A stretch of DNA of 64,000 bases from NCBI GenBank assembly GCA_010093995.1, contig ML992507.1:1449147-1513146 (forward strand). The letters are read 5' to 3'. Shown piece after piece: positions 1 to 24,337 of the stretch. Every line of letters starts with the position of its first letter. The first letter of the stretch is position 1. The notes under the pieces are model-generated. The model was given only the letters and a program-made list of their open reading frames with translations. It had not been told where the DNA came from and ran no database searches. Made by a program: the position numbers and the translations under genes. The stretch comes from Elsinoe ampelina (Eukaryota).

Positions 1-1482
1 TAATAGTTTCTTATAGTAAGAGAGATCTTTTCCTTTTACTAGTTAGAGGTTATATATTAAATAGTATAATAAGGAAGTTAATATCCTTATTCTATATATA
101 TATTAGTAGTTAATTAATATCAACTATAGGATTAAAGGTTAAGTGTAGTTTACTAATAACTTTAGGTAGTAGTATTATAAGGTCTTTACCTTTATAATTA
201 GTAATATTAAGTTGCTTCCTCTATTTATTAATAGGTTAAGAATCTAGTTCCGGATGTTAGTATTACTCCCTCTATTCTTTAATAGGGGTAGATAATTATT
301 ATTTATATCTAGAGATTAAAGGGTAGTTAGATGTTAGTTGTTTAGCTTAAGGTTATTTAGCCTAAGTAGTTTACTAATTCTTATAACTAAAGGGTAGTTA
401 ATTATAGCTATAGCCTTAATTATAATTACTACTAAATGTCTACTCTCCCTAAAGCTATAAAGCCTTAGGTTGTTATACCTATAGGATATATAGCTATTTA
501 ATAACTTATATTACCTAGTCTTTATAGATTATATTCTTATTAAATATTATATAGAGTAATATAATAATCTTTCTCTTCTAGGCTTACTAAGTATAATACT
601 AATAGAGTATCTAGATAAGGTAATTAGTTATTAAGTTATTCTATATACTAATATACTAACTAAGTAGTGCTCTAGCTTAGAATTTATATAATTTAGAAAC
701 ATGTTAGTTATAGATATAAGCTCTATAGCTAAAGTATCTAATATAAGTTAATAAGACTAGCCTATTATTATTAAGAAGATTCTTTCTTAGCTCTTATATA
801 GGGATCTTCTTAGTTTTAGTATAGGTAATCCTATTACTAATATAGATTATAAACTCTATAACTATATACTAGAGTTTAAGGGGTGCTCTATAATTAATAA
901 AGATATACCTTGTTCTAAGAATAACTACTTTGTTAGTAGCCTTAGATTTACTATTTTAGTATTAAGTATTAGGTATAGAGATATTCTATCTCTACCCTTT
1001 AAGATAAATAGCTATTACTAGTTTATAGTTCTTAAATTTACCTCCTCTATTAGAGATAAAGATAAATAAAAGCTTATTATAGGCTATTTTATTCCTTATA
1101 TAGATAAGTTTAATTACTACTAGTATATTACTCTTAAGAAAGAGAATAGTAACAAACTTATACTTACTCTTACTATATATTATAAAGAGAAGGTATTTAT
1201 AGCTCTTACTTAACTATAGTTTAATAGGACTAATAAGGTCTAGATAGAGCTTATCTAGTAAGTACTTTAGTATATCCCTTAGTTCTCTTAATACTACTCT
1301 CTATATCTTTAATATAGTATATAGTTTATAGTAGCTAAGATCTAATATTTAAAGTTCTTCTAATCTAATAGCTTAACTTTTAGTAAGGAAGAGAATAGTA
1401 TTACTAACATAGCCTAACCTCTAGTACTATCTTTCTAATGTTAGCTTTTAAGTAGTTATAATAGCTAGATTTACTCTTATAG

Positions 1483-1680
1483 TATAAGGACTAACGTAGT
1501 AAGTACGCTACGCTAGCTTACTCTAGAGATACTATTCTCCGTAGGAGAATAAAACACTTCTCGCCTATAGAATAGATAGAGTAGAGATTAGTCTTACAAC
1601 AATCGAGGGTATACTAGTATAACACCTATTCTACTCCTATATACTTGTCTTTCTAGCTCTAATATTCTACCTTCGTTATA
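1483..1680 (+). repeat. 5' LTR of gypsy element
   Basis: tataaggact...cgttata (RIP'd TG...CA). Aligns without gaps to 8577-8774 with about 18 differences, all transitions by manual alignment. Confidence 0.95.
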
Positions 1681-1729
1681 ATTCTAATCTCTCTTATATC
1701 CTATTAGATAGAGCTATATAGATAAGATA

Positions 1730-4700
1730 GTACTCTATACTTAGCGCTAGCGAAACGACTAACTGCCGCTAGAGTAGCACTAGTATAGACAACTCTCTAA
1801 TAGCTTAGCTATTAGTAAGACATTTACCGAATTAGCTATAACTCTAGAGATAACTCTTATTAAAGATTACTAGGCTAGGGAAGAGCTAGCGCTAAGGCTA
1901 TACTACGCTAATATAGCTCCTATAGGAAGTATAGCCGACATAGGAAATAATGCTATATATAAAGCGCTTCGTACTTATATTACTTAGCTTAAGAATATAC
2001 TTAGTAGTTGCTCCCTAGTTGTAGCGCTAGTACTATATAGTTGTTTCGATAATATATAACCTAACGACATTTGCCTAATAAACCTATAAATCGTAAGAGA
2101 GTATATACTAAACTTATACTACCCCGAGGCCTTAGAGTCTACTATTATAGCAAGAGTTAAGGAATTTATATATATGTATAATAACGTCTTTAAGATAGCG
2201 CTAAACATCTACTTTAAAGAAGTTACTTAGTGCTATATAGCTACTAGCTACTTAAAAGGTTAGCTTAGCTATAATTAGAACTTGTATACTAAGAGTACTA
2301 GTGTTATACTCTTGTAGAGCCTAATATAGTTCTAGCTTTAGAACTAAGCCTAGAGTTCTAAAAACTATAGTAATAGCTACGTAGTAAAGTTCTTTACGTC
2401 GCGCTAGTATAGAGAATAGTTAATTACTAATTTCTATATATTTCTCAATAGTTACGAGTTCTATATTAAGATAGTACTACTCCTAGACGACACTTGCTAT
2501 ATATAGCTTATTACCTATACTATACTAGAGCTACGCTCGGAAGTACTCCGTTAGAGAAACCTACTCCTAATTAAGGTAGAACTTCTAGTATATCTATTCT
2601 ATTTAGAGTAGAACCTACTAGGCTACTTTAACCCTATATAGAGGTAGTATAAGTATAACGCTAGAGAGAAGACTAATACTTTCGCTAAAAGGCCTTACTA
2701 TAATAAAGACTATAAGGGCTAAAAGGACTAGTAGAGTAGCGCTAACGCTACCCCTATAGCTCCCTAACCTAGCGCTACTTACCTTTATAACATCTATAAG
2801 AGCCTAGACTATTAGGCGCTAAACTGTCCCTAGAAAGACTCTTTAAAACGGATAGTGTCCTTATATTTGCTAATTCTAAGTAGCCCTAGCGTAATATAGA
2901 ATATATACTAAATTCGTACTAATATTATAGTTAACCTACCTAAAGGCCCTATCGAAGGGGTAGCTCTAATAGATAGTAGCGCCAATAGTAACTTTATTAG
3001 CTAGTATTTTACTATACGCTATTATATCGCCGTCGACCCCCTAATAGTATACTAAGTACGTAGCTTAGACAAATACGAATTAACTACCTATAGATATACC
3101 GAGTTAGTCTTTACTATTAAGGATAGTAAAGAAATAATATAGGCGTTGCGCTAGTAGTTTAAAAGTGTTAATATAACTAGTTATAATCTTATATTAGGCC
3201 TACTATAGCTATTGTCCTATAACTCCGAGATTTAGTAGAGTACTAGTATATAGAGGCATTATACTAGCGCTATATAGGTATTAATTCTAGATGTACTCTC
3301 CTTCTCCTAGGAGCTAAATTAGTCTAACGCCTAGCTCTACCTAGTATATATATACTAGGACAAACCTAGCGCCCTAACTCTACTATACTAGCTTAATAAC
3401 TACGTAGATGTTTTTAATAAGAGTATAGCGATAGCGCTACTAAGTAATAATTTTACTTACTCTATTAATATTAAAGAGAGAGAATAGCTACTCTAGGGAC
3501 CTATCTACCCCCTTAGTAAGAAGAAGCTTTAGGTACTTCGAGAGTATATAGATAATAGCTTAGTAACGAGTTAACTCTAGTATAGCACTAGCTCTATAGA
3601 GTCTTCTATCCTATTCGTTTCTAAGAAGAATAGTTCGCTACGCCTATATATTAACTATTATAGGCTAAACAATGTTACTATTAAGAACTATTACCTCTTA
3701 CCCCTAATTGCCGAGATACTTAATTATATTAAGGGCGTATACTTATTTAGTAAGCTAGACCTTATAGATGCCTACTACTAGGTATATATCTAGTATAGCA
3801 ATAAATAGAAGATAGTATTCCGCTATTACTATAGCTACTTCGAATATACTATTATACCTTTTAGCCTTACTAATGCTCTAGCTATGTTTTAGACTTATAT
3901 ATATTAGTACTTAAGTAGCTTAGTAGACTACTACTATATTATATACCTAGATAATATTCTAATCTACACTAGCGATAAGTAAGAGTATTACTAGGCTATT
4001 AGAAGCGTACTAGACTACCTATATAAGAATAGCCTCTATATAAAACTAAAGAAGTATATCTTCGAGGTAATATAGGTAGTATTTCTAGGCTACGTTATTA
4101 GTAGCAATAGCGTTATAATAGAGTAGCTCTAGGTGTAAGCTATTACTAACTAGCCTACCTCTACTAGCCTTAAGGAGTTATAAACCTTTCTTAGATTTAC
4201 TAATTTCTACTATTAATTTATTAAGGGCTTCTTCTATATAGCGCTACTACTAACTATACTTACGTAAGAGTTAGTCTAAGGAAAGTAAGTAGGCCTATTT
4301 CTATAGAGTAATAACGTAGCGTAGGCCTTTAATAGGCTTAAAGCTACCTTTACGTAAGTGTCTATACTATACTACTTTTTATTAGGTAAGCCTCTCTAGC
4401 TCGAGACTAACACTTTAGATTTTATACTTTCCGGAGTAATCTCCTAGTAAAATAAAGATAATACTCCTACGTAATACTAGTACTCTATAGCGTTCTAGTC
4501 CTAGAAGCTATAAGGTGTAGAACTAAACTACACTACCTACGATAAAGAGCTTCTTACTATTATAGAAGTAGTATAGTACTAGCGCTAGTACCTACTTAGT
4601 ACTACTACCTCGATTAAAGTCCTCTCTAACTATAATAACCTTAGGTATTTCCTAACTACTAAGAAGCTTTTATAGCGCTAGGCCTACTACGCTAAGGTAC

Positions 4701-6856
4701 TAGCGTAGTTTAATATTGTTATTTAGTACTATAGTAGAAAGACTAACCTAGCTAATAGTCTATCGCATAGGCCTAACTACTATAAGCATAAAGAAGATAT
4801 ATAGGAAGAGTACTATACGTTAGTCCCTCTCTTAGAGTAAGTATTATAAACGTAAAGTAAAGGAGTTACACCTATATCTATTATAGATAAGGAACCTAAG
4901 GCTAGTAGGGCCTAGGAAGACAGTAATAAAGCTAGTATAGCTTATATGCCTTAAACTACTCCCTAATATAACGCGCTTATATAATTCTAGCGTGCCTCTA
5001 GAATAGCGCCTATAAGTCTACCTATTACCTTAGGAGCGCTATAGCTATACTAAGAAGAGTTAGAGCCTCTAGAGTAAGAAGAGTAGTGCCTAGAGAGCAC
5101 TTATATAAATCTTTCTCTAAGCCTAACTAGTAATATTAAATTAGGACAATATATATCTACTCTAGTATCCTAGGACGTGCCGCTACTTACCTAGGAAATA
5201 ATAGAGAGCTAAGGGCATAAAGATAGTATAACGCCTACGTAACTCTAGAATACCTCTAGTAGAAAGCCCGCTATAATTTTAGACTAGAGTTAGTAGATTA
5301 TACACCTCTACGCTATGTAAGTACTAGTAGATAAGACTATATATACTTCTTCTACTCCTATATTACTTCGGGACCTTATCTATATAGTATAGTAAAGAGA
5401 TACCTTTACTTATAGCAAGAAATAGAAACTTCTAAAAGAGAGAACCTTAACTAGTAATAGTACTACCTCTAAGTAGAGCCTATCTAGTAATAGCTTACTC
5501 CGGAATAGAGATAGAGTATATATCCTAGAAGAAACTACCTTAAGAGTAGAGCTTATATAGCGTAATTATAATAACCTCTTAGGGAGTTACTTTAGCTATA
5601 CTAAGACCTACCTTAATATAAGAAGGAAGTACTAGTAGCTAGATATGTCCGTCGCTACGAAAGTGTATATTAAGCGCTATAATAGCTACTAAAGGCATAA
5701 GGTAACGCGGTATAAGTCTTATAGCCTCCTATAACTCTTACTAATTCTACCTATACTTAAGGCCTTATAACACTAGTTGCTTAATTTTATTACTAGCTTA
5801 CCCCTAGTAAAGCTCTAGCCTAGCGTTATTATAGACATAATTATCATATATATCTATCGCTTATCTAAGTTTAGTATCTATATACTAACGTTAACTAAGC
5901 TTAATACTAGAGACTTTACTAATCTATTTAAAATAGATATTATAACGTTATTTAGAACGCTAAAGACACAAGTCTTAGATAGAGAGTCTATCTTTATAAG
6001 CAAATTCTAGAGTGCGCTATACTAGTGCTAGAAGGCGTAATATAAGCTTAGTACTAGTTTCTATCTATAGATAGATAGCTAAACTAAAAGGCAAAACTAG
6101 ACGCTAGAGTAGTACCTATACTACTTTATTAACTATTACTAGATAGACTAGCTATACTAGGTTAAGTAGGCGCAATTCGTGTATAATAATACATATTAAG
6201 CGTTACTATATACTACGCTAGCGTAGTTCTTATTTATGTAGGAGATATGCCTACTTAATAATATTAAGGCGCTAGCGCTACCTAGCTACGCGCTAGCGTA
6301 TAACTCGTTAGTTAATAACTAAGTATAATCTATTACCGAAACGTATATAGAGCTTACCTAACACCTATATAAAGCATAGAAAGACTAAGTACTAGCTTAT
6401 AATAGAGGTCAATAAGTAAAAGTCTTCTATAATAGTAACAAGGTTATACTTAGCACTAAGAACCTTTATAGCGCTAGACCTAGCTATAAGCTATTAGCTA
6501 AGTATATTAGCCCGTTTATAATTATATAATAAATTAGTATATAGGTGTATAAGCTACACTTACTAGACAAAATAAAGCTAATCTATAACGTCTTTAACGT
6601 TACGCTACTAGAGCTATATAGGTATAGTAAGAGCGTACGCCTACTACCCCTAGAGGTAAAAGAGTAGGAAGAATACATTATTAAATATATCCTTAATAAG
6701 AGCTATACTAGTACTCTAAAGGCGCTATACTACCTAGTAAAGTAGTAGAGTTACTCTATAGAAGAAAGTATATAGGAGCTAGCAAAAAACCTTATAAACG
6801 CTAAGGAATTACTATATAAATACGAGGTAGCTTAGCGTAAGTATAGCGCTAGCTAA
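1730..6856 (+). pseudogene. gag-pol of the chromovirus (many RIP stops); boundaries approximate
   Basis: Knuckle 'YNIYKSLDY*ALNC' = CX2CX4HX4C ~2785-2830; protease 'ALIDSSA' ~2963; RT 'YLDNILIY' ~3944; RNase H 'ETNTLD' = ETDASD ~4403; integrase HHCC region ~5565-5700; chromodomain 'EEYII...YLVK**SY..EESI*EL..NL' ~6670-6810. Confidence 0.9.
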
Positions 6857-7033
6857 ACACTCTAGATACACTTAGGATTAATAAGTTAAAGGTATAAATT
6901 TTAAAGTAAAAAGTACTTAGGCGTAGCGCTAGGTTAGCTCGGAGTATTATTAGCTTATATAGGAAGAACGCTAGCGTAGTAAAAACTATAGAATTATACT
7001 AAAGTAAAGGGGGTATAGCGTAGATATAGTACC

Positions 7034-7919
7034 CTAGCTCTCCCTGCCTTAACTATCTATATTATCTACCTTAGTCTTATCCTTATTATCCTCCTTAACA
7101 CTATTAATACGCCTAGTTAGCGCTCTTATAGTATTATTAATCGCCTACGTAGTAGTAGCTTACTTGTTCTTAGTAACTATCTATAAGAAAGTTAGCGTAG
7201 CTTAGGCGTTATAGGGGCGCACTTCTAGACTTATATAACTAGCTAAAGCCTTAAGTATAAAGCTAGTATTACTAATTATACCTAGGCGTAGCGCCTTTAC
7301 TAGCTGCTTAGTGTCGACTTTAGAGGTAAAGAGCGTAGTAATAGCGCTATTATAGTGTAAAGAAGTTACACTATTACTATTACTCTTATTAACTACTTTA
7401 CTCTTGCCCTTAGCGTTAGACTTACTCTATATACGCTTAGTACTAGTCTTCTCGCGTATATAGTTAGTATAGGTAGTAATCTAGCGCTTTAGGAGAATAA
7501 CGTTCTTCTTAGGAGTAGTAGTATCGTTATAGAGTAGCGTATATATAGCAAAGTATTTGTCCTAGAGCCCCTTAGTAGTAGCTTAATCCTTAGAGTTAAG
7601 CTTAGTAGGCTACTAAGGTTAGTATAAAGTAGATATAGTATAGGTATAAAGTATACCTAGTAGTAGTATTTATTGCTATAACTATAACAATTATAGTAGG
7701 TAGTCTTAGCCTTAGTAATTTAGTAGAGAAGATTCTTAATAGAAAGTATACTATCTTTAAGCTAGAGGTGCTTATTAATAGTAATAGCGTAGCGTAAGTA
7801 TAGTATAGAGTACTAGTTCTAGTCGGTAAAATCGCTCTTATAAGGTCTATAAAAGGTTAGCGCTAGCGTAGCGTAAGTACTATATATAATACTTACTCCT
7901 TAGGAATTTTAGAGGCTAT
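7034..7919 (-). pseudogene. RIP-mutated antisense accessory gene inside the chromovirus; 3 exons, ~260 aa, Cys-rich (Zn2Cys6-like) N-terminus
   Basis: Exons 7919-7897, 7846-7657 and 7609-~7034. Intron 7896-7847 is gtaagt..gctaac..tag; intron 7656-7610 is gtatac..actaac..tag. Splicing keeps the frame, and all internal stops are TAA/TAG (RIP-type). Confidence 0.7.
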
Positions 7920-8576
7920 AGTTATTAAAGTGTATAAGCGTATAGGAGGTAAGCTAGCGTAGAGCCGGGATAATAAAGGGAAAAAAATTTACTACGTAGG
8001 TACTATACTAGGTTAGTAAACGAATAACTAAATAGATAAGCCCGATAGCTAGATCTATAGTAGCGTAGGCTTAGTATATATACTAAGCCTCCCCTACTAG
8101 CCCTTAGGCTAGTAAGGCCTAGTCTATACTATATAGTATCTAAAATAGGTTACTAGTATAGTATTAGACCTACGTAAGTATAGAGCTAGTATTAAGTAGA
8201 ATACTTATATAAAGGAAGTATTATAAAGGAGAAAAGAAAGAGAAAAGGAGAAGAGAAAGATATATATCTAGCTCTAAGCTAAGACTAATCTAGAGAATAA
8301 TAGGTAGTAGTATATAATAATTAGTAGATTCTTATATATAAAGATAATAACGTAAGAGCGCTATATTCTATATATAAAGAATTATACTATTGTTACTATA
8401 TCTAGTATACGAAGAATAGTATAGACTACTATAGGTGTACTATATACGCGAAGAGTGTACTATACCTAAGAGGTACTAGTAAGATACTCTTTCCTAGTCT
8501 TCTCCTATACTAGGTTTTCTAGGTTTTATTAAGGCTCGTAGGCGTAAGAGTATATCTCTCAAAGGGGGAGAATAAT

Positions 8577-8774
8577 TGTAAGGACTAATATAGTAAGTAC
8601 GCTATACTAGCTTACCCTAGAGATACTATTCTCCGTAGAAGAATAAAATACTTCTTGCCTATAGAATAGATAGAGTAGAGATTAGTCTTATAACAATTAA
8701 GGGTATACTAGTATAACACCTGTTCTACTTCTATATACTTATCTTCCTAGCTCTAATATTCTATCTTTGTTATA
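8577..8774 (+). repeat. 3' LTR of gypsy element
   Basis: tgtaaggact...tgttata, preceded by the PPT and followed by the TSD TATAG. Confidence 0.95.
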
Positions 8775-10447
8775 TATAGCCTATAGCTTCTATAAGTTTA
8801 GCCTTATAGGTAATTCCTTATAGTTCTTAAGCTTATAGACTTTAAAGTTCTTAAGCTATTTAACTCTTTTAAAGTGTTTAATAAGGCTAACTTCCTTTCT
8901 ATCCTTTATTAAGGATTTACTAACTATAGAGATACTAAGTTCCTCTTTATTCTAAAGATTAGATATAAGAGTATTTAGTAATAATAGTAAGTATATATAA
9001 TTATAAAGCTTAATAATTAACTTCTTACCTTTGCTATTAGTTAGAGTAAGCCTAACTATACTAACTTCTATATTAAGTAGCTTCTTTATACTAATAGCTT
9101 ATTTAAATTTAAAAACACCTTTATATACCTTAATTATTAAGAACTATAACCTGTCTTTAATAAAGTACCTTAATACACTAGAGTTATAGATTGCTCTATT
9201 CTTACTATAGGTTAAGGATAATAATATAGATACTACTACTACTCTATAGACTAGTATAATAATATTAATATTAGTGTTAGAGTATTTATCTAATTTACCT
9301 ACCTTAGTAGGTTCTCTAGATTCTTTAATAGCTACTTAACCTCTAACTTTCCTAGTCTTTAACTTATTACTTTTACCTTTAGCCTTTATACCTTTATTAT
9401 TTAACTTGTCTTTGTTATTTCTTTTACTTTAACTCTTTAGTACTTTCTTAGGGTACTACTTAAAGTAATCTATATTAGAGTAGATATAATAAGTATACTA
9501 AGTATATTAATCCTTAATATAACTAGCTACTCTATAAATAGAGTTTAGATTAGTTTTTCTATTATATAGGAGCTTCTATATTCTAAGAGAGTCTATTATC
9601 TCTTTAAAACTCTTCTTATAGTTAAGGCTAGATCTTTAGCTCCTTAACTATTTAGTAGTCTTTATTCCTATAATAAACATAGTCTTAATATAGTATAGAG
9701 AGAGCCTAAACTTATCTAGTTTAGTACTAATAGTACTTACTCTTTGCTCTATAGTAATAGTATATTAATAATAGTACTTTATAAAATCTTTATAGTACCT
9801 TTAGGTATTATAACTTGTTATAATTACCTTATTAAGGTTATAGATAGCTATATATAGCTTATATAAAATAACAGGTTTAAATATAGCTTTAATAGTGTCT
9901 AGAAGTTTCTTTAAAGTCTTCTAAGTTATACTATAATAAGGTCTAATAGATTTATAAATCCTTATTATAATAATACTATAAGTAATTTAGTTATTCTTAT
10001 ACTAGGTCTTATTCCTAACCTTATAGACTACCTTAGTGCCTTTACTAGTATCTAGGGCTAGTTCTTTAGGCTTTATAACTACTAGTATCTAGTCGATGTT
10101 ATAAATTATATATCTAAGTATATCCTTTTTAAGGAGAGCTACTTTAAGAGTTAATCTCTAAGTATTATAGTTACTTCCTCTCTTAAGAATCTAAGTCTTA
10201 AGTATTTTTACTAATCTAGATATAATAATAGTAATTAGCTAAAGGCCTATTAATTTAATTAATGTAATTAGCTTATTTAGGCTATTTAAGCTATTTAATT
10301 AAAGGGTTAATATAGACTACTATAAGTGTTTATCTTAATATAGCTAGTCTAGAATTTAGTATAGGCAGCTTAGTAATCCTTTTAATAATGACATGCTTAA
10401 TTTGCTATAGCTTTAAGTGCTTTTATAGAAGCGCTAGGCTTATAACC

Positions 10448-10589
10448 TGTTATAACTAGCAAACTAGATCGAGAGATGTGTATTTTATTTAGAGAGTTAT
10501 AATAACCAATTTATCTACTGTGCGTGCGCTGACTTATCAGTGCCAGTTCTTTAGTACCAGAGAAGCTGTACTAGCCTTCTATTACAACA
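10448..10589 (-). repeat. 5' LTR of the copia element (~142 bp)
   Basis: Bounded by TGTTATAA...TTACAACA (8-bp terminal inverted repeat with one RIP-type mismatch). Abuts a copia-type PBS: minus strand reads ...aca ggttataagcctagcgc. Confidence 0.7.
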
Positions 10590-10628: not shown

Positions 10629-10898
10629 GGACAAGCAGAAGATAGCTTTATAGCGCTCCCTTTGTCTAAGAGTCCTCAAGCGTCATCTCCGGCTCTGACA
10701 CATTTTGCATAGAGTTCGAAGAGCCCGTCGAGAGCACCTGATGAAGCGCCACACTTTGCTGCATATAGATTGGAAGTGGATCAATGTTCAACGTTCCCGG
10801 AAGTATCAAACTGAACCTTTGCGTGCTTAGTCATGCAGACCACAACCTCAACTGACCATGCAGCACACTCGACCTCTCCTTCAACCTGAAACCATAGC

Positions 10899-12322
10899 AT
10901 GCTTCGTTATTTATGGCTTCGATCCCGACTCCTCTCCTTGAACAGCTCGAATGTCTGCCGTAACACTCGACTCTGGCGCAGGACCACCCACACACCCACA
11001 CATGGAGCTGGCGCGTCCAACAACTTCCAACGAATAGACGACAGCCTGCTTATTGAGGAAGAAACGTTACCAGAGTACCGCTCGAAAGACTACTTCCCAG
11101 TCACTATTGGACAAGTATTCAACGACCGCTACCGTGTTGCTGCGAAGCTCGGATATGGGACCGCATCTACGGTATGGCTGTGTAAGGATCAATACACTCA
11201 CCAATACGTCGCCTTGAAAATCTATATCAACTGCTCCAAGTTCCAGCGCGAATTGCCAATCTATCAGCACATCAACAGCATCTCATCCAATCATTCAGGT
11301 CGTGATCGTGTTCGCGCGCTGCTTGATTCGTTCGACGTCAAGGGCCCTCACGGTACGCACGTATGTCTCGTTCACTAACCAATGGGTATGAGTCTTAAAG
11401 AGATGCGAGGCTTGATCGATGCCAAAGTGATAGATGACTACATCTTGAGATGGGTATTTCGTGCTGTTGGCTCCGGGATGAAGTATCTCCATGAGGACGC
11501 GGGGATCATACATACCGGTCAGTTGCACGCCAATAATGTCGTCCTTCACACTGATACTTTTCATCAGACCTTCAGCCAAACAACATACTGTTAGGCATGC
11601 ACGACGCGGCAATCCTTGCGGACGTGGCGCGTGAAGAGCGCGAGAACCCATCTCCTCGCAAGGTGTTCGACGATCACGTAGTCTATCTCTCCCGCCTTCT
11701 GAGGATCACTCACGGGACCCCATGTATTAGCGATTTGAGCGAGGCACGGTTTGCGAACGTTAGTAATACCGAGCTTGTCATGCCTAATGTCTATCGTGCG
11801 CCAGAAGTTATCCTTGGAATGCCGTGGTCTTATCCAATTGATATATGGAGTTTCGGGATGTCGGTGAGTCGTGTCGTCGGAAGAATGAAATAAGTCAATT
11901 GACACGTGGTAGCTCTGGGATCTATTTGAACCACAACGACTGTTCGGCAAAGCAGCGTTCAACGGAAAGTACTCGGAGGAGCATCATCTAGCACAGATGG
12001 TGGCCGTTCTGGGTCCACCACCAATGGACTTCTTGGAACGATCTGATGAGTCCATGCGCTTCTGGGATTCAGATGGTGAGTATCAAGCGACGGCGAATAG
12101 CTATCCGCCAGCTTTCGTGTCGATTAACATGACGCAGGTAATTGGATAGGGAAAGTCGCAATCCCGCAGATGACACTTGATGGACTAGAGCAGCGCCTGG
12201 AGCATGAAGACAAGGCACGATTTTTAAGCTTAATGAGGAAACTGCTGAGGTGGAAACCCGAGGATCGACCGAGCTGGGAAGAACTGTCTCGAGACGAGTG
12301 GCTCATCGCGGACCTCATCTAA
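10899..12322 (+). pseudogene. SRPK-like (CMGC) Ser/Thr kinase with a premature TAA
   Basis: KLGYGTASTVWL, VALK, IIHT/DLQPNNILL, YRAPEV and IDIWSFG motifs; introns 11518-11567, 11864-11912, 12076-12137. In-frame TAA at 11376-11378 within GPHGTHVCLVH*PMGMSL. Confidence 0.85.
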
Positions 12323-12531
12323 GTCTGGTGACGTCGTCCTATTCGAATGAAATCAAGGATCGACAACGAATTCGTGACCGCATCGAGATACAAGCAGTGG
12401 ACGAAACGAAGTGGATGATCACGCTGCAAAGGCTGAGCCATGTCGGCTGCATCACATGCCACGATCGCCCTCACGAAAAGGACCAAGTATATATTGACAT
12501 CTTTACTCCTCTCACCTCATCGAACAACCAC

Positions 12532-12761
12532 GAGAGCGTAGCTCAAGTGGTTAAGTAGTAAAACCAAGTCTCTGCCGTAACAAGCAGTTGACCGAGTTTG
12601 GGCCACTTCCTATTCAGCGCAGCTCTGACACAGAGCAAAGGCCTCGGGTTCAAGTCAAGTTCGCCTCTCTCTACGACACCACAAATTAATGTGCGATGCG
12701 GTTGAGAGAGGAGAAGCCCTGGTACACCGGTCCAGTTGAGTAGGAAGATAAGAGCTTTTTT
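12532..12761 (+). ncRNA. tRNA-headed, structured putative Pol III transcript (ncRNA or SINE-like); not a canonical tRNA
   Basis: A box TAGCTCAAGTGG 12539-12550; B box-like GGTTCAAGTC 12647-12656; TATA-like tatata ~12488; T6 terminator 12756-12761; several internal helices. Confidence 0.55.
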
Positions 12762-13706
12762 GCCTCGTTGGTGGACATTTTGCCACCGACCGGCACGAAG
12801 TCAGCATTTGATGGGCAGAGGAGAACAGTCAGATAGCAGGTATCTCACGCTGGAAGAGATACGACATACGAATAGCTTTTTGACACGCGCCTGAACACCA
12901 TGCCCACCTCCTTCCCTGCATACTACCAGTACGTCGATGCGACATGCAAATGCCCTTTTGGCACCCGCTGAAGCACATCAGCCTCTCTCTTCACACTACC
13001 CACACCTCCCTATAAACTACCAGCAACTCCACATCCTTCTCCCTTCTACTCCGAGCCTTCGTTGCAAGGCACCATCCAACACGAAGCTCCTCCGGCACTT
13101 CGCACCACCTGCAAGCGTCGCACACCCCTTCACCACCCATCCCTGGTAAATTCCGACAGGACGGCCATCCTCCAGTAGAACCTTTGCAGGTAAGGACACA
13201 TCGACTCCAATCGCAAAGGCCGATTACGTGAAAGCCCCAGCGTCGCCATGCCCACAATCAGATACCAGGCCTCAGCCCTGCACGATCGGCGACAGCAGAC
13301 AAGCGCTACCGAGACTTGGACCCGCAAAGCTCACCCGAAGATCCAACAAGCGATGCGCAGGTTCACCACCTACCACACGATACGATACCCTACCACACGA
13401 CGGGACGCAGCCGAATGCCCCCGATCACAATCCCGAACTGCCATCGCAAAAAAGACGCCAATGTTTACCCCCCTCCGCCCTCCACCCAGGCGACACTGAA
13501 GAAGCCTTTGACCATCACGACGCTACACCCGCCGAGGGAAGAGGAGTCGGGAGCCTGGCTGGCAGTGGCTTTTTGACGTGCGCCCCTGCAAAACCCATCC
13601 GACCCAACATCCTGCTGTTTCGCCTTCCCGCCGAGGTGCGCTCTGGGTCGGGCGGGAGTGGCGCTTGGTTTGGCCCTGAGGAGTGCTTTAGGAGCTGGGC
13701 GACGCT

Positions 13707-13818
13707 GGAAGAGGGGAGGGGAGAAGAGAAGGGAGGGAGAGAAGGGAGGGAGAGAAGGGAGGGAGAGAGGGGAGGGAGAGAGGGAAGGGAGAGGGGGGAG
13801 GGAGAGGGGAAAGGGAGA
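13707..13818 (+). repeat. 112-nt uninterrupted polypurine (GA) tract
   Basis: No pyrimidine between 13707 and 13818. Confidence 0.9.
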
Positions 13819-14509
13819 CAGCGATGGAAGGAAGTAGAGAAAAGGAGGGAGCAGAAGTGGTGAAAGAGAAGCTGGCGTGCTTGACAGTGACTGAATGCTC
13901 CGGGCAGACATGCACGAGGGCATTGATAGTCGTACCATGAGCCGTGCGCTTCATCCGTTTCTTCGTTGGCGTAGCAGTGGCGGCGTGGTACAGAGGCCCG
14001 GGCTGGATTGGATATTCACATTGCATTACCATTAACTACCACTCCTCTCACAAGACTCCTCTCCTCTCTCTTTCCACCTCTCTTGCCCTCCCCTTCATTC
14101 CATCCACCCTGCACGCCCATCTCCCCACCGCCTCCTCCCTCCATCTCCACCATCGGCCTTCCGCCCGAGGCCCACCGTGCAAGACCGGCTCCTCTCTCTA
14201 GAACAAACACAAACATGAACTTCTCCGACGGGTATCCCTGCCTCCCCTTTCCGCAACAAAAGAGGTGGCTGCATGATGCAATTTCCCAAGCAGTAAAACC
14301 AAAAAAAAGGTGGCGGCAGCACAAACAAAGGTCGTTAAAGTCGTGTGTCACTCCTCCTCCCTCGTCCAGCATCCTTGTCGAAGGTAGACACGAGAACCTC
14401 TCTTCCTTGATTCCTTTCGTCCCATCTACATCTGGGTCGTATTTCTATTTTTGAGTTTTCTGGGTATACCGATATTATGCAAAACAAACACTCCTGCGCG
14501 CGAAGGCTA

Positions 14510-15711
14510 CTAGGTATACGCGCTCCCTCCAGTGACAGGGATTGGCCAGTCATCCTCGGTGATGCTGGACCAGAAGAGCCAGATCGTGACGACCGCGCCG
14601 AGGTTGAATAAGACCTGGAACAAACCGCCATTGATGGCGCCGTTGGTGCCGTTGCAGATGTGGACGGAGGCGACGAATTGGAAGATTTGACCTATCGCGA
14701 AGAGGAGGGCGGCGGAGAAGAGGTAGACTGTTTGTTATTAGTACTTGAAGACTGGGTGGGGATTGAATGGACGTACTCATTGGTCTGCGCTCACCGAGGA
14801 CGCGGAGGACGAGGTTGGCTTCGAGGACGAAGAAGATGAAGATGAAGACCAGTGGGACGAGGAGGTAGAGGGTGTAGATGGAGTAGTGTCTGTTCTGGAG
14901 TGCAGGGTCAAGCGTGTCATTCCAGTAGCCTGTCCAGCTGAATCCGGTGTCGAGAGCGATGTAGCCTGTGCCTACGAACAGGATGGCAGAGGAGCCAAAG
15001 ATAAGGCCGAGAGAGACAAAGGTGCCGTCGTCGAGGACTTGGTAGCCGACTGCGCCGTTCATGAGCAGGATCCATGATGTGGCTGTCACTGCGGCGATGT
15101 GGATGGCGGTAAAGGCTCGTCGGACTGCGCTGTCGAGAGGGAAGCCGCCGACGGTGAAGATTTCGCAGATGCTGATGAGCATGTAGCCGACGAGGAAGAG
15201 TTGCATTTCTCTGCGGGAAAGTCAGGCTTGATCGTTGTGGTTGAGGTTTTGGAGTGCATACCTTCGTCCTACAGCCGCCCGCTTGCGGTTCGACCGCCAG
15301 AAGAGAAATGCGCATACCGCCAGAGCAATGCCATCTAGGAGGATTGATCCTGGAAAATTGTCAATCACATATTCCTCAATCTCTTGTCACGAATATCGAC
15401 ATACCCAAATTTGCCAATCTTCGTCCTCCGCTCAATTGCAGGCCTTCTAACGTGCAGCCTCCAGCGAATTCGGTGGTCGGCGAATTAGGGGCTAAGAGGA
15501 AGAGCTGGGCGGACGTCAGTATCCTGAGCCTCGAGAGTGACATACTGGGCTGCGATGCAGCGATTGTCGACTCACATTGCATGGCGGTAATGTCGAAGCG
15601 GTATTGCCTGTGTCCCGGCAGAAATCCTGTTCGGCCTCGTCAGCGACCATTTGTCTGCAGCGCAAGCGATCGGCGGCCGCATACCTGGAAACGCCCGTAC
15701 TGGGTCGACAT
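14510..15711 (-). CDS. Chitin synthase export chaperone (Chs7 family), multi-exon
   Basis: Spliced product MSTQYGRFQ/DFCRD..TLPPCN/..ANLG/..RKRAAVGRR/EMQLFLVGYMLISICEIFTVGGFPL...FWSSITEDDW..*; five canonical introns; multi-pass membrane pattern. May be the CHS7 paralog rather than the ortholog. Confidence 0.88.
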
Positions 15712-21931: not shown

Positions 21932-24337
21932 ATGGTAGTCGTGCAACCACTGGGGGCGAGCCTGTGTCGGAATCATGACCCCTTCTCACCCCCCACCCCC
22001 TCTCAATCCGCACTAAAGCCTTGGAGAACAAATCTGGTAGGTCATCCCGAACTTAATCTTGCATGATGCACTGCAACCTGCCGAGATCTCCGTTTCTTGG
22101 TCTGTTCACTCTCTACTGCACTATCTACTTTCGGGCAGTGCTTTGAGCTTGCCATCACTTACCTCTCCCCCGCCGGCTCGTGAGTATACTGCACGATGAG
22201 AGGCTTGCGGTAACGACCGGTCTAGACACACGGCTGATGCTGTCAGACCGGTCTGTCGAATACCCACAACCTGTACTTTGTCGCCCACGCAAGCGAGATC
22301 ATCGTCCATGAACCAAACTTCCCGGCTCAAGACATACCGAATTCCTTCAGCTTGGTAGTGAGCACACCGCCGTCATCGCGAGGTCTGAAAGGCCACATCG
22401 ACCCTCGTACCCCACATGCGATCAACAATCTCGTAGTCGATTACCTTGGATCTGAAGAAATTCTGGCCGTCGTTCGAGATGATGGAGATGTTGACGCATA
22501 TCTTACCAAGCACATATCGGCGGCAATTCAGCGCCGTCGGAGTACATCGAATTCGCTGTCCGTGGTTGCGACTGAAATACGACCATTGCTGCATCGTAAT
22601 GTCGGGAATAGCGCATGGGGACTGGCAGTTCATACCGAAGCTCGCCTGATAGCAGTCTCTTCAAACAACCACGACTGCAACATTTTCAAATTCGGCCTAG
22701 CGGACCACACTGGCGATGAGTCTGTCCATGGCTCATCTGGATATTCACAATTTTCAGATCGGGAAGAAGACGAGCACATCAGATTACCAAATGGTGGTGC
22801 GAATATTCCGTGCATTGCTTTTTGCAATACCGGTCACGATCCTGATGGAAGATATCTGCTTACGACCGACATATCCGGCCTGACCAGATGGTGGGATCTG
22901 CAATCAATGGCGGGTCCGCAAGGCATGTACACCGGGCGAACACCGCGGCAGACTAGCGCCTTCAGTGAAGATTGTGCGGGATGGGGCGTGGCATTCCTCG
23001 ATCCAAGATCTTTCGCCGAGGTTGACGACTTTCATGATGCAGCATTCCCGTCCGCAGCCAAGCACGCAGTAGATCTCAAATACGATTCAGCCGTTTGGGA
23101 TCTGACTGCGGCACGTCTCGGTCTCTCCGCTGCAGGGGATGCACACGCATCCCCAATGACATCCATTCCCTCGCCGAACGGTGATGGACACGAAAGGACA
23201 CCTCAAAGATCGTCGAGTCATGGATTCGGCGAGCGACGATCGACACGACGAACTTCGCAGCGCGATGTTGGCACACCGTCAAACGTCGGCGACGAAGTTG
23301 ATGTTTCGGTCGAAGAGGCATTTGTAGAACGAATCAGAAAAGTCATTTTGCGTGTTGGCGAAGACGGCTCGAACAGCATTACCAGCTCAGAAGACAGCTC
23401 TGAACAGGACGATGACGACGACGATGATGACATGCAGGACATCATGGATGAAGACGAAGAAGATATCGACGACAACAATGGAGTGCCACTAGACACTCGC
23501 GATTTACCCTCAAACACCATGACCACCACCACAGCCAGCACCGCCCTATCGCCTCCTCTCGACTCTGACGGCCCCGACCTCGTCCCCTTCAACACCCCAG
23601 CCCGCACCCCCCGCTCCCGCCTCCGCATCCGCCGCGAACTCACCATCCTCCGCCGCCTCTACGCCGACCAATACCCCATCCCCCGCTCCCCGTCCCCCTC
23701 CCCAGCAGAACAAAACTACCACCTCCTCTTCGCCAACGACACCGCCATATGCCCCGGCCTTCCCTGCCCCATCTTCACCGCCTCAGTACGAGACATGCAC
23801 CTCCTCCAGCCCGCCACCTCCCCTTCGCCAACCGCAACGGCCCACCTCCCCCTGATCCTCCTGGGCAACGCCTTCAAGATCCCCCTCTCCGCCGACGCCG
23901 ATGACTTCGCCTTTGACACTGATTTCTCCGAGCGCTGCTCTTTGCTCGCGCAGATCCCTTCCCTCGGCGTGCTGGTCGTGGGGAACCAGAAGGGTAAAGT
24001 GGCGGTGCTTTCGGGGTTCAAGACCAGGGAGAGGGTCAATATCAAGGGACCTGGAGGGACGCGGGTCAAGGGGACGAAGTGGGTGTATGGGTTGAGGTTG
24101 GAGGCGATGGTGCCGTTTCGTAGGCAGGAGAGGGAGGGGTTGAAGCCGGCTTGTCAGTTGTATGGGGTGGCGGTGGGGAGGATGCAGGGGTGTTTGAGGG
24201 GGAATGGAGGGGAAGGGAGGGAGGGAGGAGAGGAGAGGTGGAGGTTGATGGTTATGTGGATTGATGAGACGGTGTTGAGTTATGAGATTAGGAGGGGGGG
24301 AAAGGGGGGGTTGGGGGTAGAGGGGTTGCTGATCTGA
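21932..24337 (+). CDS. Crt10-family beta-propeller protein
   Basis: Exon 1 21932-22036 ends PWRTNL; intron 22037-22246; then TGLSNTHNLYFVAH...PHAINNLVVDYLGSEEIL..DDGDV..SAWGLAVH..RLIAVSSN, matching the Crt10 pattern. Confidence 0.8.

Follow-up and report, generated by a model that had tools for sequence, protein, structure and literature searches.

A candidate tRNA-derived, RNA polymerase III-type non-coding RNA gene in Elsinoe ampelina and its related copies

Several kinds of RNA polymerase III (Pol III) unit with a tRNA-like beginning have been described. The TMER units of murine gammaherpesvirus 68 (MHV68) and the plant dicistrons of tRNA and small nucleolar RNA (snoRNA) are Pol III units of ~200-250 nucleotides (nt), in which a tRNA-like head with A and B boxes is followed by a hairpin RNA and a T-run. 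Filamentous fungi are known to carry tRNA-related short interspersed nuclear elements (SINEs) such as Mg-SINE and Foxy. Another of these, AfuSINE2 of Aspergillus fumigatus, is presented in the available sections of its description as having a 5' part that is related to tRNA and contains A and B boxes, an unrelated body, a size in the range of 140-493 bp and a low copy number (PMC5063351). In yeast, according to the available sections of a further report, a tRNA-style A/B promoter is combined with a non-tRNA product in RPR1 and SNR52, where the boxes lie in the 5' leader, in SCR1, where they lie in the mature RNA, and in ZOD1 and iYGR033C (PMC5356446). The element considered here occupies positions 12532 to 12761 of a 64,000-nt stretch of the Elsinoe ampelina genome (assembly GCA_010093995.1, contig ML992507.1, forward-strand positions 1,449,147 to 1,513,146; the whole stretch is called the window, and positions are counted from its first letter), and was singled out in an earlier note made from the letters alone. 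We regard it as about an even prospect that the element belongs to a small, lineage-restricted family of tRNA-derived Pol III non-coding RNA (ncRNA) genes; on the best reading, the members of this family descend from a tRNA gene and no longer encode a tRNA. The family appears to be previously undescribed, and the nearest described things are the low-copy fungal tRNA-related SINEs, with the yeast non-tRNA Pol III genes and relics also close.

Compared with RPR1, SCR1 and SNR52, the element differs in matching no RNase P, signal recognition particle (SRP) or snoRNA model, and in being multi-copy with mosaic paralogs. Compared with the TMER and tRNA-snoRNA units, it differs in that its head holds no foldable cloverleaf, that its central hairpin varies in length between copies and that no convincing C/D or H/ACA box was seen by eye.

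The case for a Pol III unit begins with its promoter and terminator signals. The TATA-like element, A box, B box-like motif and T6 run of the earlier note were all found in the sequence at the places it had given:

12532..12761, plus strand: whole putative Pol III unit, from the tRNA-like head to the T-run (motifs, shuffles, fold and paralog similarity)
12489..12496, plus strand: TATA-like element (TATATAT at 12489-12495), seen in the sequence; putative TFIIIB site
12521..12529, plus strand: upstream block CGAACAACC; the same 9-mer lies just 5' of the high-depth paralog, offset by one base (by eye)
12539-12550, plus strand: A box-like motif TAGCTCAAGTGG, seen in the sequence
12647-12656, plus strand: B box-like motif GGTTCAAGTC, seen in the sequence
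12647..12657, plus strand: 11-nt form of the B box-like motif, GGTTCAAGTCA, agreeing at 10 of 11 positions with the B box consensus
12756..12761, plus strand: T6 run, seen in the sequence; putative Pol III terminator

The TATATAT lies ~40 nt 5' of the element and ~25-30 nt before the putative start site (about 12520-12522). No T5 run occurs from the A box to just past the B box, and the T6 at 12756-12761 follows. A scripted scan of both strands, with A and B box consensus patterns that were not tool-derived, asked for an A box, a B box 30-130 nt later and a run of five or more T within 150 nt, with no T5 inside; a single site in the 64-kb window has this layout, which arose in only one of 300 composition-preserving block shuffles of the window. 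The combination of motifs is confirmed as real and non-random.

What the element has in common with canonical tRNA genes is its A box, accompanied by a GCU/AGU stem and a GUGGUUAAG loop resembling a D-arm, its B box, an acceptor-like pairing and a T-run; it differs from them in that the T-stem is unpaired, the anticodon loop is not valid and the boxes are about 65 nt farther apart. When the arms were fitted by hand, only two of the five T-stem pairs formed around the B box, no register gave a valid anticodon loop of 7 nt carrying U33, and the segment in the place of a variable region came to ~44 nt. The head keeps an acceptor-like 5' strand (12532-12538), able to pair with 12662-12671, and a 3-bp D-stem with its loop, also by hand. 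Since T-stem, anticodon loop and variable region are all off, the tRNA likeness is essentially confined to the promoter boxes and arm fragments. ARAGORN reported no tRNA gene in the window and, with introns of up to 200 nt at default stringency, none in 12401-12900; at a threshold relaxed to 80% (-ps80) it gave one implausible call with a 170-nt 'intron'. A register resembling an intron-containing tRNA-Glu(CUC) was considered and rejected, its loop positions being wrong and its variable region 44 nt long. The Rfam tRNA model found no match at E<=10 in searches of 701 nt and of 159 nt.

Known RNA families fared no better. In Rfam 15, none of 4227 families reached its gathering score across the window and no family appeared at E<=10 over 12300-13000 (701 nt); two shorter permissive searches returned five noise-level matches (8-14 bits, against gathering scores of 35-69), none of them to a tRNA, ribozyme, RNase P/MRP, SRP, 5S, small nuclear RNA or snoRNA family. 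The statement of the earlier note that the element does not fold into a cloverleaf, and its description of the RNA as unclassified, are borne out by these results; its suggestion of a ribozyme finds no support, as no Rfam ribozyme or other family came up even at E<=10. Resemblances of 12711-12745 to 5S rRNA and of 12708-12725 to the CR-I region of RNase P/MRP, both judged by eye, were set aside as lacking Rfam support in an element that is multi-copy. A miniature inverted-repeat transposable element was rejected as well, no terminal inverted repeats being seen by eye, and an 85-aa frame on the minus strand, with no match in a protein-database search, shows no coding potential.

As an RNA of 230 nt, the element has a predicted minimum free energy of -75.4 kcal/mol (z -2.9), and none of 200 shuffles was as stable. 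An independent shuffle control gave z -2.7 for the element, +1.1 for an equal-sized left flank and -0.8 for the right flank. When folded separately, neither end is out of the ordinary (5' 141 nt, z -0.4; 3' 86 nt, z +1.5), and it is therefore the long-range helix, together with the central hairpin, that accounts for the fold signal. The helices drawn in the earlier note were all recovered, the main ones with pair probabilities of 0.95-1.0 in the partition function:

12606..12618 with 12735..12747, plus strand: long-range helix of 13 bp, including 2 G-U pairs (pair probability 0.98)
12572-12575/12584-12587, plus strand: small hairpin CUGC/GCAG with an 8-nt loop (pair probability 0.95)
12622-12627/12631-12636, plus strand: small hairpin GCUCUG/CAGAGC (pair probability 0.99)
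12660..12715, plus strand: central hairpin, 28-nt arms, 75% complementary (inverted-repeat listing and partition function)
12664-12671/12704-12711, plus strand: stem CCUCUCUC/GAGAGAGG (pair probability 1.0)
12680-12683/12690-12693, plus strand: capping stem CACA/UGUG (pair probability 0.95)

The block around the B box and the 22-mer at 12711..12732, both of which recur in the related copies described below, have mean unpaired probabilities of 0.58 and 0.38, and partly pair with each other.

Three further foldings or loop sequences were seen at the margins of this structure. Across 12526-12552, the 5' end of the RNA could form a hairpin in which leader and acceptor-like strand pair with the A box, instead of tRNA-like arms. 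Directly 3' of the T-run, an 8-bp hairpin (GUUGGUGG / CCACCGAC) with an AUUUUG loop occupies 12765-12790, and its 5' arm lies within the downstream block that is also similar in a third paralog type. Read from the minus strand, the central hairpin has in its loop (12687-12679) the sequence AAUUUGUGG, which we take to resemble an Sm site (minus strand, 12679-12687); this was treated as chance, the motif lying within the 43 nt missing from the second paralog.

Related copies were found in public data. A search of sequencing runs with 12400-12900 returned ten runs under four organism labels, none of them recorded as RNA. The contigs of four of the ten, here X2, X4, X5 and X8, were compared with 12250-13050 at a likeness of at least 80%, which gave five contigs in X2, one in X4, one in X5 and three in X8; X2 and X4 are RNA runs by guess only. 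What is known of the paralog sequences comes from tables of differences and from loose ends of 30 letters. In the same organism (that of X2), the element has at least two further related variant types with different flanks, and these turn up again in X8, a run under another organism label. The proposal of the earlier note had hinged in part on the existence of homologs, and related copies thus exist both in the same organism and in the run of another. Within the window itself, no second copy was detected, and the 22-mer is unique there.

Apart from contigs identical to the window locus, the matching contigs fall into three forms. In form (a), represented by X2 record 2 (1086 nt, mean depth 1426.5), 35 of the 38 positions of 12534-12571 are matched, 102 unrelated letters then replace 105, and the match resumes over the 88 positions of 12677-12764, of which 8 carry other letters and 2 are gaps; its flanks are unlike those of the window, and X8 record 10, of the same type, could be aligned as far as 12775. 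Form (b) comprises X2 record 3, X5 record 7 and X8 record 9, which match from 12560 or 12563 on with 9-15 other letters; X2 record 3 (depth 48.8) matches 12560-12650 with 9 other letters and 7 gaps. The head of this form, seen in X2 and X5, is different yet tRNA-like, its GCU/AGC D-stem enclosing the same loop motif. Form (c) comprises X2 record 4 (depth 264), X4 record 6 and X8 record 9, which match 12621-12667 and 12711-12732; ten letters replace the 43 nt of 12668-12710, and a diverged tail, which still holds a 3' helix strand of the AGTTGAGT type, ends in a T5 run.

How these pieces are connected can be read from their ends. X2 record 1 is a single 1623-nt contig that runs from the side of the neighbouring protein-kinase-like gene into the element, up to 12650. 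X2 record 3 also ends at 12650 and X2 record 4 begins at 12621, a 30-nt overlap of the kind that a branch node of a 31-mer graph would leave (with k taken as 31). No X2 contig covers 12651-12705 of the window type, a gap that proves nothing. From these joins, at least three loci may be proposed in the organism of X2: P1, the window locus; P2, which would consist of the head and 5' part of form (b), the shared 47-mer (12621-12667) and the 3' part of form (c); and P3, which would be form (a). In X4 record 6, the left flank and 5' part of the window locus are joined to the 3' part of P2, and in X5 record 7 the 5' part of P2 is joined to the 3' part and right flank of the window locus. Under the three-locus model, these two records would be reciprocal assembly chimeras formed through the 47-mer; they may also be real recombinant alleles, or products of gene conversion between family members.

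The pattern of conservation among the copies was analyzed by hand from the difference tables. Similarity between copies starts at 12534, in the tRNA-like head, and reaches 12764 in X2 or 12775 in X8. With the head at one limit and the T-run at or near the other, what is repeated has the same extent as the predicted Pol III unit. Three blocks stand out:

12621..12667, plus strand: 47-nt block with the hairpin 12622-12636 and the B-box region; 2 differences between P1 and P2, at unlisted positions
12711..12732, plus strand: 22-mer, identical in the second paralog (P2) and with one change (12727) in the third (P3)
12762..12775, plus strand: downstream block, over which similarity persists in a copy of the third-paralog type from another organism (X8 record 10)

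Over 12577-12620, P1 and P2 differ by many substitutions and indels. The CUGC/GCAG hairpin of the second paralog has lost five of its eight loop bases (gaps at 12577/12582 or 12579) with the stem intact; the 56-nt central hairpin is reduced in P2 to a stub still able to form a 3-bp stem; and the long-range helix of P2 can be formed as 4 + 6 bp separated by a small internal loop, both of its strands having gained insertions. A run of T5-T6 stands at the matching place in both other paralogs. As far as can be judged from the tables, this patchy conservation is in the way of RNA genes, with near-identical blocks, an indel confined to a loop and a swap of one hairpin. Similarity also continues 3-14 nt beyond the T-run and, upstream of the head, P3 shares CGAACAACC and roughly 17 of 22 positions (by eye). 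As a retrocopy should not carry upstream promoter-proximal DNA, duplication at the DNA level together with its context is favoured.

From the motifs, the predicted structure, the paralogs and their conservation, we infer a mode of transcription, RNA ends and a function for the element, on the type-2 Pol III promoter scheme set out in the available sections of PMC5356446. TFIIIC would bind the B box (12647-12657) and the A box (12539-12550) and would place TFIIIB over the TATA-like region (12489-12496). Pol III would start about 10-12 nt upstream of 12532 and stop in the T6 run (12756-12761), yielding an RNA of roughly 235-240 nt with a U-tail. In the folded RNA, the 13-bp long-range helix would close a domain of two hairpins, leaving the B-box block and the 22-mer loosely paired. 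These two segments, being near letter-for-letter alike between paralogs, are taken as functional sites, presumably a promoter and a protein- or RNA-binding site; they would offer a constant surface, and the roughly 100-nt middle would be a variable module.

Hints of expression come from contig depth. In X2, contig depth is 29.9 on one side of the window locus and 10.1 on the other, and the P2 and P3 contigs reach 48.8, 264 and 1426.5. The unequal depth on the two sides of one locus suggests that X2 is an RNA library; if it is an RNA run, these values indicate that at least one member of the family, P3, is abundant. The window copy may then be a weak member, with the high-depth paralog as the main gene.

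Of the other explanations, the one closest to the facts is that of a low-copy tRNA-derived SINE, that is, a Pol III transcript copied by the reverse transcriptase of a long interspersed nuclear element (LINE), the variants being subfamilies. The earlier note had named this option, and the multiple dispersed copies with different flanks, their mosaic variants and the combination of a tRNA-related head with an unrelated body agree with it, as does the degraded AT-rich repeat block nearby. With 230 nt, the element is possibly short enough to have escaped repeat-induced point mutation (RIP). Elements of this kind, low in copy number, 140-493 bp long and with Pol III promoter features, are on record for A. 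fumigatus in the available sections of PMC5063351. What sets the element apart from the fungal tRNA-related SINEs is that no target-site duplication was found at narrow or extended boundaries (by eye, and with no flanking direct repeat in the repeat listing), that it has no A-rich, simple-repeat or LINE-like tail and ends in T6, with a T-run at the same place in the copies, and that the paralogs remain similar in their flanks, ~22 nt upstream of the head and 14 nt past the T-run, which is unexpected of a retrocopy. Divergence is patchy, not even, and BLASTN shows no similarity to the AT-rich block or elsewhere in the window. The repeat table of Elsinoe fawcettii, in the available sections of PMC12941528, lists no SINEs, a weak argument since library-based masking misses a new family. 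The SINE option is thus weakened by the absence of duplication and tail and by similarity reaching past the transcript, and we consider it improbable. The interpretation in the earlier note is supported in part, namely in the type-2 Pol III layout, the strong long-range structure and the absence of a match to a known family.

A decayed tRNA gene relic, retaining TFIIIC and Pol III signals but with no RNA function, and either at most weakly transcribed or serving solely as a TFIIIC-bound chromatin landmark between AT-rich block and gene-rich region, would suit the low depth of the contigs of the window copy and its position 2 kb from the AT-rich block; the yeast ancient tDNAs ZOD1 and iYGR033C, weakly transcribed or bound by TFIIIC only according to the available sections of PMC5356446, offer a precedent. 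Several paralogs sharing a 90-nt post-tRNA part, the 22-mer and the position of the terminator speak against it, and a significant long-range fold is not expected of a relic, so that we think this quite unlikely. Slightly less likely still is that there is no Pol III unit at all, the element being a structured 3'-untranslated or intergenic module of Pol II transcripts, or a repeat fragment, with accidental boxes. That it begins 210 nt past the stop of the kinase-like gene, and that the 1623-nt X2 contig spans from there into it, can be read in this way; so can the A box region, which pairs imperfectly, as the 3' arm of an inverted repeat, with 12526-12537 (12-nt arms, 83% complementary, 3-nt loop), the strand-symmetric fold energy and the failure of the tRNA model to match even at a loose threshold. 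The joint occurrence of A box, B box and T-run is nevertheless rare by chance, a paralog with a different head keeps the tRNA-type D-arm motif, and the copies resemble each other between the limits set by head and T-run.

Several observations weigh against the element being a member of a family of tRNA-derived Pol III genes. From the end of the A box to the start of the B box there are 96 nt, slightly more than the 31-93 nt that the available sections of PMC5356446 report in tRNA genes of yeast, a range that may differ in this fungus. The minus strand is predicted to fold with equal stability (-76.2, z -2.9). In P2, the long-range helix lacks its outer 3 bp and the helix 12564-12572/12594-12601 lacks two pairs; the X8 variant G12633A (depth 3.4, possibly an error) breaks a hairpin pair; and only one pair-keeping double change was found by hand, in the acceptor-like stem. 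For the three-paralog model to hold, X4 record 6 and X5 record 7 have to be chimeras. The RNA label of X2 is a guess, and transcription is a prediction for every copy, the contigs showing neither strand nor ends nor local level. Depths are means over whole contigs of 335-1623 nt, so that a high value may reflect a neighbouring mRNA, or a repeat in a DNA run, and the contigs of the window copy itself are low (29.9, 10.1). Beyond the four runs, scans of metagenomes and prokaryote contigs yielded no relatives: with the head motif, none of 14 metagenome loci was related (BLASTN alignments of at most 24 nt, covering the motif only), and the 22-mer had no match among the prokaryote contigs, a result that was expected and is uninformative.

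The element lies in a convergent intergenic region. To its left is the multi-exon protein-kinase-like gene (10890-12322, plus strand; stop at about 12320-12322), one exon of which matches Pkinase with E 3e-6, below the Pfam cut-off, and whose last exon ends in EELSRDEWLIADLI; to its right, a Chs7 chitin-synthase-chaperone gene starts at 14550 and is encoded by the minus strand. The intervening stretch 13150-14450 is of strand-skewed low complexity (GC skew -0.37, then +0.36); a purine-rich tract within it has a GREGRE-type repeat as its translation, with no Pfam match. Positions 1-10500 form an AT-rich block with a GC fraction of 0.23-0.35, against about 0.5-0.6 elsewhere, a sharp boundary at about 10500 and only four stop-to-stop frames of at least 70 aa. 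It looks like RIP-degraded repeat DNA, and the RIP-affected block that the earlier note had placed nearby is therefore present, as AT-rich, RIP-like DNA about 2 kb from the element. Farther on, a CRT10-like frame (22238-24337) is 83% identical to an Elsinoe batatas protein, the next best matches being to other Elsinoe/Sphaceloma, so that the protein comparison also places the window in the genus Elsinoe (Dothideomycetes, Myriangiales).

A set of 43 tRNA genes is low for a filamentous fungus. This is the number annotated, together with zero SINEs, in the near-complete genome of E. fawcettii, as given in the available sections of PMC12941528; with no SINE listed there, standard annotation would not flag a family of the present kind. 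In the available parts of the literature searched, there is no description of the family, nor of Pol III ncRNAs in Elsinoe or Dothideomycetes. Annotation pipelines miss the element, tRNA finders and Rfam both being silent on it. To our knowledge, the Pol III products of filamentous fungi beyond tRNAs, 5S, U6, RNase P and SRP RNA are little catalogued.

Should the element prove to be a relic, or a SINE of low copy number, there would be nothing unusual about it. A bolder possibility, which we hold to be doubtful, is that Elsinoe, and perhaps other Myriangiales, make by Pol III an abundant, lineage-restricted family of structured RNAs of ~230 nt, a fungal counterpart of the animal Y, vault, BC1 or snaR-type RNAs, in which a fossil tRNA promoter and a constant binding platform of invariant 22-mer and B-box block would be combined with a ~100-nt middle that differs completely from paralog to paralog and could provide each member with its own target or partner. 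Should the element indeed be a member of a small family of tRNA-derived Pol III genes with mosaic paralogs, one of them possibly very abundant, the Pol III transcriptome of fungi would gain a new class of product, and the element would provide a tractable case in which a tRNA gene has given rise to a new RNA gene and not to a SINE.

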